From Escherichia phage vB_EcoM-RPN242, in sequence record OL656110.1: DNA of 64,000 nt; one strand, written 5' to 3'. Both the position numbers and the translations under genes were made by a program. Of the stretch, positions 15,962-19,552 are shown in pieces; the first letter of the stretch is position 1, and every line of letters begins with the position of its first letter. A model generated the notes under the pieces. The model saw only the letters and a program-made list of their open reading frames with translations, searched no databases and was not told the DNA's origin.

Positions 15962-18190
15962 TCACCGTCTCAGCCATTCTTCCATAGACATACCAGAGCG
16001 TTCATCATAAACCTGAATTCCACCGAACCCTGGGATGTTCTCCACAGAGTGAGGATCTGGCGTCGTCATCATGCCCCCAAATGGTAGCATCTGTGATTCT
16101 TCCATCGCAGACAACCGTCCTCTCATATCCACAGAGATATTTGAATTGGTGAGATCACTAAACCATTCTTGTTTCACCGCCCATGCATACAACACGAGGG
16201 GCATTACACAGTCATCATGACAACCATCATCGGCTTCATACCTTGTTCCAGTCCATACGAATGTACTGAGTTCATCTATCGTGTCCTGGTCATCTATCAC
16301 CAGCATTTCACGTTCAATCAGGGCTTTCAGGTTGGCACAGCCGTTTGTGCGCACCTTCTTGTTGGTATTGATACCAGGCTCAGGACGGCGACCACCGATT
16401 CTCTTGCCTGTGCCCTTGGTATCTGTTGTAGTGAAGATGATCTCGGGATATTCAATTTCCTGGTATAGAATTGTGATTACCTGACCACCCACGTCGTTGT
16501 TGGTCTCGACTAGCATCGGGCACGTTCCATACTTCTCGCCCATATCGGCGATTGTGTACGCATACATCATTGGAGGTATCGTGTTATTTCGATACTTGGC
16601 TGCGATCTTGTGAGGATAGTCTGTGATGTCGATAATGGTCAGCACAGAATAATCCCCTTCGACACCCTTGCCTGTATCTGCGATACCCATATAGATGCGC
16701 TTAGGATCGTAGTCGTGATAAATCTTGGTGAACTCGTTCGGCTCCTGATACAGCTTCGAGGTCATCTTGTCCAGACACTTGGCAGGTATCAGTGATCCCA
16801 CAGAACCACGGAACTTAATGCCAAATTCTTGATCGAAACGTGCATCACCCAGCTTCGCCCTTTGTTTGGATTCCCAGTCTGGATCTTTGGTGTACGTTGG
16901 AACACGATACCATGGGACCTCGGTGAGTTTGAAGTCGTTGTATTGTGGGTGTTCTGGGTTCGCCTTGGTGACGATGTCGTAGAACAACCCGCGCTGACCT
17001 TTCGGCGTACTGGTCAGAATACAACGTGAAGTCTCTGCAGATGCAATCGCCGGGAATGTAGACTCCCAGAATTCAAAGTCGTTTTCAATGAACGCCACTT
17101 CGTCCACATACAGGAGCGATACAGATCGACCACGGATGGAGTCGGAAGATGTCGCATAGGCGTAGATCTTTGATCCGTTTTCGAACTCTATCAGCGTGGA
17201 ACCGAACTTCTCACAACCCTGTTGGAGGAAGAATGGCAAATCTTGATATGCTTTGCGAATACGATCTAGGATTTCAATCGCCTGCTTCTCTTTGTTCGCC
17301 AGTACTGCGATCTCTTTGTCGGAGTGGAACATCGCATACCAGAGCAGGAACGCTGCCACGACAGTCGTGTTGTGGCTGAGGAAGCCGTTGGTGTAGTAGC
17401 GCTGATCACTAGATTTCACCTGTAGGTCATACATGTGATGCGTCTCACCAGTCTGCCAAACCTCACGGATTTCTTCTGGACCTTCTGACGTCATGATGTA
17501 TGACCCAGCATTCAGGTCTTTGGCAAATATCTCCTTCATTTCCGGAGTGAAGAATATATGTTCGTCGGCCACGTTAATTCGCCGCCCAGTAACAGTCACA
17601 ATAACGAATTCCGCATATTTCTTCGTCTTATGCGCTGCGATAACCGGAACCCAGCCACTATCGGATTGCACAAAGTAACGCTTGCCGAAGCGGCTGTCCA
17701 CGAACTTGTCATGGTTGCCAATGGTATTCAGCGGCACGGCGTGATTGACGTCCTCGAAGCGACTGTGAAGCTCCCCTATGGTCAGGAGCAACTGCTCTTG
17801 GCTGAGAGTATCGTAAACTGTGACAAGCGTGTCACCTTTTACACATTTCCCAGACTGACGAGCCTGGACGACCGCATTGAATCGATAGTCCTGGAAGTCA
17901 TGGAACAACTGCTTCTGGTAATCGTGCATGTCAAAGAGGATGAAGCCTTTATCGATGGTCGTGATCTTGTAGTAGTTGGCGGCGAAGTAATGGGCGTCCA
18001 TCGCGCACTCGACGAACTCCGATTCTTGTTCGTCGGTTAGCATCAACTCCACACGAGGTGCACGCACAGACGGCTTGCGCATGAACGTTTGGTCCATACG
18101 CAGTCTGACGTCTTCTGTCTTAAACCCCGTCTTGAGCGGGGCGTATTCTACATCACGCTTCTGATACGCCATCGTCTTCACCTTCTCCAT
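15962..18190 (-). CDS. terminase large subunit (gp17-like) containing a mini-intein
   Basis: Walker A reads ARQSGK|C...HN|TTVVAAF, giving ARQSGKTT after excision (T4 gp17 has SRQLGKTT); later region aligns with gp17. Alternative start at 18172. Confidence 0.9.
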   Translation of the reverse strand: MEKVKTMAYQKRDVEYAPLKTGFKTEDVRLRMDQTFMRKPSVRAPRVELMLTDEQESEFVECAMDAHYFAANYYKITTIDKGFILFDMHDYQKQLFHDFQDYRFNAVVQARQSGKCVKGDTLVTVYDTLSQEQLLLTIGELHSRFEDVNHAVPLNTIGNHDKFVDSRFGKRYFVQSDSGWVPVIAAHKTKKYAEFVIVTVTGRRINVADEHIFFTPEMKEIFAKDLNAGSYIMTSEGPEEIREVWQTGETHHMYDLQVKSSDQRYYTNGFLSHNTTVVAAFLLWYAMFHSDKEIAVLANKEKQAIEILDRIRKAYQDLPFFLQQGCEKFGSTLIEFENGSKIYAYATSSDSIRGRSVSLLYVDEVAFIENDFEFWESTFPAIASAETSRCILTSTPKGQRGLFYDIVTKANPEHPQYNDFKLTEVPWYRVPTYTKDPDWESKQRAKLGDARFDQEFGIKFRGSVGSLIPAKCLDKMTSKLYQEPNEFTKIYHDYDPKRIYMGIADTGKGVEGDYSVLTIIDITDYPHKIAAKYRNNTIPPMMYAYTIADMGEKYGTCPMLVETNNDVGGQVITILYQEIEYPEIIFTTTDTKGTGKRIGGRRPEPGINTNKKVRTNGCANLKALIEREMLVIDDQDTIDELSTFVWTGTRYEADDGCHDDCVMPLVLYAWAVKQEWFSDLTNSNISVDMRGRLSAMEESQMLPFGGMMTTPDPHSVENIPGFGGIQVYDERSGMSMEEWLRR
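17369..17845 (-). mobile_element. mini-intein, 159 aa, no endonuclease domain, inside the terminase P-loop
   Basis: Starts with Cys after GK, ends SHN followed by Thr; C-terminal block HHMYDLQVKSSDQRYYTNGFLSHN matches intein F/G blocks; removal restores GKTT. Confidence 0.8.
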
Positions 18191-18854
18191 TCGGCTCTGC
18201 CTGAACGTCGATTACATCTTCTTCGGGATCAGGTCCTTTGGGCGCAGCTTTCGCTGCAGCACGTTCTTCAGCACGTTTACGGGCGTCTTCGATGGTCTTC
18301 AGTAGATCACGGGAAGACCTGGCCTGTTTACCGACGTTGACCGTGGTTGTGCCATCAGGGGACGTGGTGACCTCGACGGTTGTTTCGTCTCCAGGAGGTG
18401 GCTCTCTGTCGCCCGTGACCGCCTTGATAGTTTTCTGGTTCTCCATCAGGTCTTTGTTCAGGCCGCGCATGAGTTCACCCAACTCTTTGAAGACTGTGAA
18501 GGCACGGGGTGCTTCAGTCGTCGTCGCGAGTTTGGCTGCCTGTCCCATCATGAACATCGTGGCTTCCTGCATGGCATAAGTCGTGTCACGGATGCGTTTG
18601 TAGTCGGTGGTGGCATCAGTGTCTTCGAAGTCTGGAACCTTAGACTCCTTGGGCTTCAGCTCTTCTGGGTCCAATGAAGGAGGAAACACCACAGGCTCAT
18701 ACCCCGCAGGCTTTTCACCCAACCATTCGCCTGTATCCGGATCGTAATTTTTTCCGGCCATAGGCGAGGTCTTCTCCATGACTTCTTGAGCGACCTCATC
18801 CCGCGCTTGGATAGCACTGAGGGTGGATAATAGGCGTTCTGACATAGCACTCAT
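18153..18854 (-). CDS. putative terminase small subunit (gp16 position)
   Basis: 233 aa directly upstream of and overlapping the large terminase gene; ATG at 18854. Confidence 0.45.
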   Translation of the reverse strand: MSAMSERLLSTLSAIQARDEVAQEVMEKTSPMAGKNYDPDTGEWLGEKPAGYEPVVFPPSLDPEELKPKESKVPDFEDTDATTDYKRIRDTTYAMQEATMFMMGQAAKLATTTEAPRAFTVFKELGELMRGLNKDLMENQKTIKAVTGDREPPPGDETTVEVTTSPDGTTTVNVGKQARSSRDLLKTIEDARKRAEERAAAKAAPKGPDPEEDVIDVQAEPNGEGEDDGVSEA

Positions 18855-18856
18855 AA

Positions 18857-19552
18857 TCAATCTCCAGGATGATGTACACCGTCTTTGTCAACACGGAACC
18901 ACTCCGGCAGTTCCGTCCACGGTGTTTTCAAATCATTAGACATTTCGATAATTATCTCTTTGATCCCGTTAGGATCCCCGCCTCCCTCGTTGTCCACCCA
19001 ATAGTCATACCCGTAGATGAAGCCGCTCAGCTGGAACATGAAGGAGCAGTCGACGTGTGGTGAATCAGAAGCATCCCCTTCCCAGTTATCGGACATCTGG
19101 TGGCTGATCAGTTGGATCTTGATCTTCTGGTCTTGCTGTAGTGTATCGTTGTCCTTGATACCACAGTCTAGAGAGGGAGTGAATACCGAATAAACCTGCT
19201 CTAGCACCTGTAACATCTCAACCAATTTCTTGGTTCGGATATTGTACTCAAAATCGATAATCAGGGGGATTCGCTGCTTCGCCCCTGCTGTTGGTGTCGA
19301 TTGTCGATTGTGGTACGTCTTCGTCACCTGTTTGTTGATCTCAAACTGGCCAAAAGAGAATGTCGCAAATGGAAGCATGTTGGACGGCACGTTCCTGTTG
19401 AGGTCATTGCGTCTCCCGATGGCCATGTGTAATGGGACTTCCATAAGACCACGCTCTGTGTTCACCTTCAGATCAGACATAATGGTGGCAAACAGATTGA
19501 TGTATTTCATCAATGAATCATGGTAGAAGTAATTTTCAAATGGTCTGGCCAT
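18857..19552 (-). CDS. neck/tail-completion protein (gp15 position)
   Basis: 231 aa; synteny only. Confidence 0.45.
   Translation of the reverse strand: MARPFENYFYHDSLMKYINLFATIMSDLKVNTERGLMEVPLHMAIGRRNDLNRNVPSNMLPFATFSFGQFEINKQVTKTYHNRQSTPTAGAKQRIPLIIDFEYNIRTKKLVEMLQVLEQVYSVFTPSLDCGIKDNDTLQQDQKIKIQLISHQMSDNWEGDASDSPHVDCSFMFQLSGFIYGYDYWVDNEGGGDPNGIKEIIIEMSNDLKTPWTELPEWFRVDKDGVHHPGD

Follow-up and report, generated by a model that had tools for sequence, protein, structure and literature searches.

The terminase intein described here is already known from sister phages. It was reported for phage Marshall in 2013 (PMC3853055) and for Klebsiella phage Magnus in 2019 (PMC6763660). In GenBank, the orthologous 477 nt are marked as a mat_peptide 'intein' in Salmonella phage Mooltan, 'intein' also appears in the records of Maynard and Marshall, and the label 'intein-containing terminase large subunit precursor' is also in use for these orthologues. 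Since the element was thus already annotated and published, the original prediction set its novelty too high. The searchable literature on this intein and its Ackermannviridae orthologues consists of genome announcements only, with no experimental study. We analyzed a 64,000-nucleotide stretch of Escherichia phage vB_EcoM-RPN242 (the window); the source phage is an Agtrevirus-like member of the Ackermannviridae. Marshall, Maynard, and Mooltan (Kuttervirus) and Magnus (Taipeivirus) share with the window the gene, the insertion site between Lys and Thr, and the length of 159 aa (477 nt), and we find no substantive difference between the Kuttervirus and Taipeivirus orthologues and ours. At the amino acid level, the window's intein is 76% identical to the Mooltan-type allele, 74% identical to that of Klebsiella Taipeivirus phages, and about 97% identical to that of other Kuttervirus phages, SenALZ1 among them. 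Annotations of the gene in the window's own clade (LHE287, YX22, AV101, and others) go no further than 'terminase large subunit' or 'hypothetical protein'.

Terminase inteins placed between Lys and Thr of the P-loop have been termed "classic" (Kelley et al. 2016, mBio, PMC5050341). Among mycobacteriophage terminase inteins, some have an active endonuclease and five have been demonstrated to splice in experiments; for mycobacteriophage TerL1-a, the authors conclude that formation of the active site needs splicing (Kelley et al. 2016, PMC5050341). The host protein of TerL1-a belongs to Terminase_1, whereas the terL of the window is of the T4-type Terminase_6, and the Terminase_6 inteins of the same study (PMC5050341) occupy the C-motif rather than the P-loop. 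No sequence relationship is detectable between the mycobacteriophage TerL1-a inteins and the intein of the window.

By sequence and fold, the closest solved or characterized relatives are AceL-TerL, GOS-TerL, Cat-TerL, VidaL, and gp41-1, class 1 inteins of phage or metagenomic origin whose activity has been demonstrated experimentally and which serve as protein-engineering tools. At about 15 to 25% identity, they have in common with the window's intein the C-terminal motif hMYDLxV...HRYYTNGi(L/V)SHN, and the AceL, GOS, and Cat inteins likewise come from terminase large subunits. AceL-TerL, GOS-TerL, and VidaL occur naturally as split, trans-acting inteins; that of the window is contiguous and would act in cis. 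Further, the +1 residue is Cys in AceL-, GOS-, and Cat-TerL but Thr here. The structure of the Pyrococcus horikoshii RadA mini-intein also fits our model (TM 0.78 to 0.81), although this intein is archaeal, has a recombinase and not a terminase as its host protein, and is only about 16% identical. The RadA mini-intein, followed by Thr at +1, interrupts Walker A of a P-loop ATPase, and its conditional splicing, dependent on temperature and single-stranded DNA, is documented.

An interrupted T4-type large terminase

The longest open reading frame over terL (15962..18190, minus strand) encodes 742 aa, and the gene is 99.2% identical at the nucleotide level to the 'terminase large subunit' gene of Escherichia phage LHE287. 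The second ATG of this frame (18172; Met7, MAYQKRD...) is the start annotated in sister phages and is preceded by the ribosome-binding sequence GGAGAAGGTG; on both grounds, translation likely begins at Met7. The precursor would then have 736 aa, with the intein at residues 110 to 268 (116 to 274 of the 742-aa frame), and the spliced protein 577 aa. The original prediction had a 742-aa protein reduced to about 583 aa, an arithmetic that holds for the longest frame but not for the likely start. As for gene order, terS lies upstream of terL and a gp18-like sheath gene downstream. In the window, terS and terL have no endonuclease gene between them, and no second terL or second intein of the same family exists anywhere in it.

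The insert is in frame, free of stop codons, and exactly 3 x 159 nt long. Around it, the frame reads ...VVQARQSGK/CVKGDTLV...YYTNGFLSHN/TTVVAAFLLWY (slashes mark the insert boundaries), such that the Lys of the Walker A motif is parted from its Thr. Removing the 159 residues restores ARQSGKTT, and the joined exteins match T4 gp17 structures (3ezk, E 3.4e-72) with no gap at the junction ('vqarqsgkttvvaafllw' in joined terL, 'lsrqlgkttvvaiflahf' in 3ezk). The spliced sequence also matches Pfam Terminase_6N (E 1.5e-22) and Terminase_6C (E 6.8e-7). By these matches, the host protein is a T4 gp17-type large terminase composed of an N-terminal P-loop ATPase and a C-terminal RNaseH-like nuclease. The boundaries originally predicted are exact to the codon, and we add the strand, which had been left unstated.

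Table 1. Features of the interrupted terminase locus (positions in the window)
Feature	Position	Strand	Basis or conservation
terL precursor from likely start, T4 gp17-type large terminase plus intein	15962..18172	-	Pfam Terminase_6N and Terminase_6C
N-extein part, 109 aa, ending ...VVQARQSGK (first half of Walker A; P-loop Lys at -1)	17846..18172	-	
Class 1 mini-intein, 159 aa, Cys1 to Asn159	17369..17845	-	Anatomy, profiles, conservation, fold model
Cys1 codon TGT, block A nucleophile	17843..17845	-	Invariant in 20/20 aligned relatives
Block B, Ala93-Asp94-Glu95-His96	17558..17569	-	A93, D94, H96 invariant
Asp140 codon, block F Asp, in MYDLQV	17426..17428	-	Invariant
Block G end, Ser157-His158-Asn159 (penultimate His, terminal Asn); last codon AAC 17369..17371	17369..17377	-	Invariant
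Thr+1 codon, C-extein nucleophile and Walker A Thr (GK-T)	17366..17368	-	
C-extein part, 468 aa plus stop; remainder of ATPase domain and RNaseH-like nuclease domain	15962..17368	-	
Recombinant patch, last ~43 nt of N-extein and first ~380 nt of intein	17466..17888	-	Identity contrast
terS, gp16-type small terminase, overlapping terL start	18153..18860	-	

Splicing residues, profiles, and predicted fold

The insert is a genuine class 1 mini-intein, consisting of a HINT splicing domain only, with no homing endonuclease. In an alignment of 20 relatives, mean column identity is 52%, yet C1, A93, D94, H96, D140, S157, H158, and N159 are invariant. The features first noticed in the sequence (a Cys start, a His-Asn end, Thr at +1, and residues of blocks F and G) are thus all present, and Cys1, D140, H158, and N159 among them do not vary. 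In the TxxH-type motif of block B, an invariant Ala replaces Thr, the commonest form among inteins, and the His is retained throughout. Asp140 aligns with the equivalent residue in the YDL/YDF of Cat-TerL and VidaL. Of the three possible +1 nucleophiles, the Thr found here is the least reactive. Class 3 inteins need no nucleophile at position 1 and instead use a Trp-Cys-Thr triplet in which the block F Cys is the nucleophile; this class is ruled out by Cys1, by the invariant Asp140 in place of a block F Cys, and by the lack of any other Cys in the intein.

Profile searches against intein families, suggested in the original prediction, gave a mixed outcome. TIGR01445 (intein_Nterm) passes its cut-off on the insert (25.1 versus 24.5 bits), but Pfam Intein_splicing (PF14890) on the isolated insert scores 35.0 bits (E 1.6e-8), 0.8 bit short of its gathering threshold of 35.8, and TIGR01443 (intein_Cterm), at 11.9 bits, stays below its cut-off of 15.6. 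A profile built from the 20 relatives matches the solved inteins VidaL (1.5e-11), gp41-1 (2.4e-11), and Cat-TerL (8.6e-8). Against a six-frame translation of the window, the same profile finds the terL frame as its sole match (E 1e-72), placing the identity of the insert far beyond chance.

The AlphaFold model of the insert has an all-beta HINT topology (pLDDT 95.4, pTM 0.88). Each of the top 50 Foldseek matches to it in the PDB is an intein or a BIL domain (probability 1.00), the best being VidaL (E 1.1e-10, TM 0.76/0.83). A full-length mobile intein was considered and rejected: there is no match to LAGLIDADG, HNH, or any other endonuclease profile, and the HINT fold accounts for all 159 aa, in agreement with the endonuclease-free architecture first proposed.

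Empty sites and distribution

We find the same insert at the same position in about 280 phage records, from cultured, plaque-forming, and independently isolated phages; essentially all cultured enterobacterial Ackermannviridae seen have it in TerL. Searching with the 159-aa insert alone in an index of 5.8 billion proteins returned two matches, and the relatives were obtained with the full-length precursor. Exactly 477 nt separate the two parts of the peptide spanning the junction in the enterobacterial Ackermannviridae listed, whereas Vibrio phages and hundreds of T4-like phages encode it uninterrupted, in 165 nt. Further, five distinct metagenomic TerLs (P0015-P0019; 575 to 581 aa) read ARQSGK/TTVVAAFLLWYAMF, with the site empty. 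These proteins are 73 to 85% identical to the exteins and are encoded on syntenic gp13-gp20 contigs, and their empty site is precise at the codon level, lacking exactly the 159 residues. The alignment of the flanks to intein-free gp17 homologues, a check proposed with the original prediction, is contiguous in T4, in T4-like phages, and in these five metagenomic proteins.

Larger inserts occur in other metagenomic sequences. Those of P0054 and P0060/61 (422 to 447 aa) have the same termini and about 270 additional aa of low complexity, in which no Pfam endonuclease was matched. P0121 carries a LAGLIDADG intein at the same site, but this intein begins with Ala and is unrelated in sequence. No endonuclease-bearing ancestor at this insertion site is established by these examples. 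Other mobile elements are found in terL of relatives: GIY-YIG domains are present in terL frames of Vibrio phages, and an intron has been reported in terL of Campylobacter phage IBB_35.

Selection and composition

The ratio dN/dS is 0.05 to 0.22 for the intein and about 0.03 for the exteins, indicating that the intein is selected as a protein. By dN, the insert evolves 5 to 10 times faster than the exteins, with only the splicing residues kept invariant. Its composition bears no signature of recent acquisition (GC 49.7 versus 49.2% in the exteins, GC3 59.7 versus 57.6%). The intein is old and ameliorated and is fixed in the cultured enterobacterial Ackermannviridae without an endonuclease.

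Proposed splicing and alternative explanations

We conclude, with a probability of roughly 93%, that the insert between the Walker A Lys and Thr is a class 1 mini-intein that is spliced out of a precursor of about 736 aa to leave a 577-aa terminase. Its identity as a mini-intein, as originally proposed, is borne out by the profile matches to solved inteins, the HINT model, the invariant residues, the precise empty sites, and dN/dS. The precursor would be translated with an interrupted ATP-binding loop and could not function in packaging as an ATPase. Splicing would begin with an N-S acyl shift at Cys1, followed by trans-esterification to the side chain of Thr+1, after which Asn159, helped by His158, would cyclize and free the intein. 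A final O-N shift would create a normal Lys-Thr peptide bond, yielding the 577-aa terminase with its ARQSGKTT P-loop intact. Splicing presumably takes place, since the window has no other terL and the interrupted gene is common to about 280 cultured phages, and it is presumably efficient; packaging ATPase activity would then depend on splicing.

Whether splicing is also regulated is a separate matter. The intein could be kept as a posttranslational switch, with splicing conditional on temperature, redox state, terS, or binding of DNA or the prohead, so setting when, late in infection, the packaging ATPase becomes active. P-loop inteins, those of terminases included, have been discussed in this light (Kelley et al. 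2016, PMC5050341), and both the fixation of the intein among the cultured enterobacterial Ackermannviridae seen, despite the lack of endonuclease drive, and the purifying selection acting on it are consistent with this idea. However, an intein lodged in an essential active site is also expected to become fixed, since nothing short of a perfectly precise deletion leaves the phage viable. The rapidly evolving surface of the intein speaks against a conserved regulatory interface, and the close relatives that do without it also weigh against a switch. Redox control by a disulfide trap can be rejected, as Cys1 has no partner within the intein. We consider a switch unlikely.

A permanent, non-splicing HINT-like domain native to this terminase lineage would also be expected in every cultured enterobacterial Ackermannviridae TerL seen, and the original prediction had named homologues carrying the segment as a native domain as evidence against an intein. 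The near-universal presence of the segment in these phages does not count against splicing, because relatives of 73 to 85% identity lack exactly these residues, the insert evolves so much faster than its surroundings, and it separates the P-loop Lys and Thr, which a P-loop needs side by side, as in the alignment to T4 gp17. The preservation of every splicing residue amid divergence elsewhere also argues against a native domain, which we regard as very improbable. Removal from RNA or bypass during translation (an intron or a programmed hop), with the HINT-like frame incidental, is hardly credible: in its favor is only that relatives' terL genes harbor the IBB_35 intron and the Vibrio phage GIY-YIG domains, and against it stand the uninterrupted frame of 3 x 159 nt, the protein-level constraint, and an in silico fold that is that of an intein with high confidence.

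A mosaic intein core

The mini-intein has a history of its own within terL. A patch of about 430 nt is 95.9% identical to Kuttervirus SenALZ1, whereas terL outside the patch is Agtrevirus-like, with about 90% identity to phage Ag3 and 76 to 80% to SenALZ1. By this identity contrast, the intein core is a Kuttervirus-type recombinant patch within an Agtrevirus-like gene. Two intein alleles that differ by about 24% occur in Agtrevirus and in Kuttervirus alike, and the intein core is exchanged among phage genera via homologous recombination.

SenALZ1 and Ds25CZ have a free-standing NUMOD3 homing endonuclease gene between terS and terL, which is absent from the window. A linkage of this gene to the window-type allele was rejected, as the approximately 22 records that have it span both alleles (SenALZ1 and GG32 versus heyday and Se_EM1). 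It is conceivable, though unlikely, that the intein is still effectively mobile despite having no endonuclease, its core behaving as a cassette that crosses Ackermannviridae subfamilies during co-infection, perhaps assisted in trans by the NUMOD3 enzyme. The mosaic itself is observed; an intein version of 'collaborative homing' through the upstream NUMOD3 endonuclease is speculation.

Implications

The terL genes of this clade should be labeled as encoding intein-containing precursors with a 577-aa mature product. For terminase phylogenies of the Ackermannviridae, whether based on length or on alignment, the 477 nt should be stripped, especially because the history of the intein differs from that of the rest of the gene. 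As a compact cis-acting relative of the engineered TerL split inteins, with Cys1 and Thr+1, this element could become a minor tool. It further illustrates how inteins favor P-loop ATPases, as is well documented. Greater interest would attach to it if a dedicated mechanism underlay the cassette-like transfer of this endonuclease-free element, or if splicing were conditional, which would constitute a DNA-packaging checkpoint in a phage family used for biocontrol.

A predicted class 1 mini-intein in the terminase Walker A motif

The translated terL ORF reads ...VVQARQSGK/CVKGDTLV...YYTNGFLSHN/TTVVAAFLLWY, with slashes at the ends of an insert whose predicted coordinates proved exact. Profile searches find Pfam Terminase_6N and Terminase_6C in the precursor; taking out the 159 residues lifts the Terminase_6N score from 63.5 to 80.8 bits and brings the P-loop region into the match. 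The joined exteins, the parts of terL flanking the insert, match T4 gp17 structures (E = 3e-72). Because they align to intein-free T4 gp17 without a gap at the junction ('vqarqsgkttvvaafllw' against 'lsrqlgkttvvaiflahf'), the insert parts the Walker A Lys from the Thr, as originally proposed.

In isolation, the insert scores above the TIGR01445 cutoff (25.1 bits; cutoff, 24.5), falls narrowly below that of Pfam PF14890 (35.0; cutoff, 35.8; E = 1.6e-8), and narrowly misses that of TIGR01443. We aligned it with the equivalent inserts of 19 relatives, found with a full-length protein query and down to 34 to 42% identical to it. The invariant residues (C1, A93, D94, H96, D140, S157, H158, and N159) include the block A nucleophile, block B His, block F Asp, and block G His-Asn, and Thr+1 follows the insert in all members. 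A profile of this alignment matches the solved structures of VidaL (1.5e-11), gp41-1 (2.4e-11), and Cat-TerL (8.6e-8). An AlphaFold2 model made from the same alignment (pLDDT, 95.4; pTM, 0.88) has an all-beta HINT topology with no additional domain in the 159 residues, in agreement with the prediction that an endonuclease domain is absent; each of the 50 best PDB matches from Foldseek is an intein or an intein-like BIL domain (first, VidaL; E = 1.1e-10). The insert begins with Cys1, its sole cysteine, and the invariant block F residue is Asp instead of Cys, which rules out a class 3 intein. With these features and no endonuclease domain, sequence and model together identify it as a class 1 mini-intein.

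The insert is near-universal among cultured Ackermannviridae, yet exact empty sites exist. Of 264 records matched by terL, 259 align over at least 80% of the gene, and the insert on its own has a full-length match in 284. In a spread sample of 60 listed records, all enterobacterial Ackermannviridae entries have the junction-spanning peptide interrupted by exactly 477 nt. Five distinct metagenomic terminases (P0015 to P0019; 575 to 581 aa), with exteins 73 to 85% identical, read ARQSGK/TTVVAAFLLWYAMF; their contigs are syntenic (gp13-gp14-gp15-gp16-gp17-gp18-gp19-gp20), and relative to the window terL the codon-level deletion is exact. Vibrio phages, 76% identical across the junction peptide, and hundreds of T4-like phages likewise have an uninterrupted P-loop. 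These uninterrupted homologues rule out a native terminase domain, and the exact empty sites join the family-profile matches, invariant residues, HINT model, and Foldseek result in supporting the original mini-intein reading.

Features of the terL region and of related loci
Feature	Location	Strand	Remarks
terL, longest ORF	15962..18190	minus	742 aa; starts MEKVKTM...
terS, gp16-type small terminase gene	18153..18860	minus	upstream neighbor of terL
gp18-like tail sheath gene			downstream neighbor of terL
Insert	17369..17845	minus	residues 116-274 of the 742-aa ORF (ORF translation)
Recombinant patch	17466..17888	minus	last 43 nt of N-extein and first 380 nt of intein
NUMOD3 gene, Salmonella phage SenALZ1	L010 606-1487		between terS and terL
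NUMOD3 gene, Dickeya phage Ds25CZ	L007 609-1487		between terS and terL

Start codon and proposed splicing

A second ATG (MAYQKRD; window position 18172) is the start annotated for terL in all sister phages; read from there, terL shares 20 nt with the 3' end of terS, whose stop is at 18153. Because of this shared start and the ribosome-binding sequence GGAGAAGGTG preceding it, a 736-aa precursor and a 577-aa spliced protein are more likely than the 742 and 583 aa first predicted; that removing the insert restores a gp17-sized terminase still holds.

Because the window contains a single terL and a single intein of this family, the terminase is essential, and phages carrying the interrupted terL were isolated as plaque-formers, splicing would have to restore the Lys-Thr pair. 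Rejoining would yield an active ATPase, presumably via the standard class 1 pathway through Cys1, Thr+1, His158, and Asn159. A literature search found no experiment on the Ackermannviridae terminase intein, either that of the window or its orthologues.

The window terL is 99.2% identical to that of Escherichia phage LHE287 and 97.8% to that of Agtrevirus AV101. In GenBank, Salmonella phage Mooltan carries a mat_peptide 'intein', with the same 477-nt boundaries as the window insert, inside an 'intein-containing terminase large subunit precursor', and a separate protein record is titled 'intein [Salmonella phage Maynard] / [Marshall]'. According to the 2013 Marshall genome paper, the large terminase 'is interrupted by an intein' (PMC3853055); the 2019 Magnus paper describes the same interruption in a Klebsiella Ackermannviridae phage (PMC6763660). 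The nearest characterized relatives by sequence, the terminase-derived split inteins AceL-TerL, GOS-TerL, and Cat-TerL together with VidaL, all splice experimentally. Given these annotations, papers, and relatives, the terL mini-intein finding is correct and already known. A terminase intein reported in a 2012 Campylobacter phage paper is a distant relative by tblastn. In mycobacteriophages the terminase is the commonest intein host, and the Lys-Thr position is the 'classic' P-loop insertion (Kelley et al. 2016; PMC5050341).

Inserts in other terminases

Related mini-inteins occupy the P-loop of Vibrio phage VP-1 TerL (P0059; 738 aa) and of P0052 (734 aa). In both ORFs the ATPase domain is followed directly by a terminal GIY-YIG endonuclease domain (residues ~500 to 590), which suggests that a homing-endonuclease insertion further divides terL in these phages. 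The metagenomic TerLs P0054 (948 aa) and P0060/P0061 (987 aa) have inserts of 422 to 447 aa at the Lys-Thr site that share the termini C...YYTNGxLSHN/T; their extra ~270 aa, at intein residues ~31 to 46, are charged and of low complexity, with no Pfam endonuclease match. An unrelated LAGLIDADG intein beginning with Ala1 sits at the same site in P0121 (882 aa, metagenomic), and a related-looking intein (CVTGDTIV...) lies at a second site, after RGKS and just before the Walker B strand, in P0110 (708 aa, metagenomic). Judging from these last two sequences, inteins occupy several sites in the gp17-type ATPase domain of environmental phages.

Constraint and exchange of the intein core

In comparisons with unsaturated synonymous sites, dN/dS is 0.05 to 0.22 for the intein versus ~0.03 for the exteins, and between the window and Shigella phage Ag3, intein dN is 5 to 10 times extein dN. 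These values indicate that the insert is kept as protein under weaker constraint, the pattern to expect of a splicing domain that has no job but to leave. Its GC and GC3 equal those of the exteins, marking it as an old resident.

Nucleotides 1 to 270 and 706 to 2208 of terL are ~90% identical to Ag3 and 76 to 80% to SenALZ1, a Kuttervirus, indicating an Agtrevirus-like backbone, whereas nucleotides ~285 to 707 match SenALZ1 at 95.9% identity and Ag3 at 75%. Informative sites divide 100:10 (SenALZ1-like to Ag3-like) within this patch and 75:315 outside it, with a Fisher p of 1e-44 that is inflated since the breakpoints were chosen after seeing the data. The mosaic signal in the alignment is nonetheless unmistakable. 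Kuttervirus and Agtrevirus each hold two intein alleles, ~24% apart in amino acids. Identities, site split, and paired alleles together indicate that subfamilies have traded the core of this endonuclease-free intein and that the breakpoints lie within the conserved stretches coding for the P-loop and block F/G.

In some Ackermannviridae, terS and terL are separated by a free-standing gene for a NUMOD3 homing endonuclease, matched by ~22 records at at least 94% nucleotide identity. Because this gene accompanies both intein alleles, its presence not tracking the allele, and is absent from the window, the comparison gave no support for endonuclease-assisted intein transfer. The Salmonella phage selz/SenALZ1 variants OL964746, OL964747, OL964753, and MZ375358, shortened to 118 to 124 kb, lack the gene (only 11% matches) and probably arose by deletion, in the laboratory or in nature; full-length variants retain it. 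For a terminase intein already on record, the residual interest lies in how fast it would splice with Thr+1 as nucleophile and in the swapping of its core by recombination.
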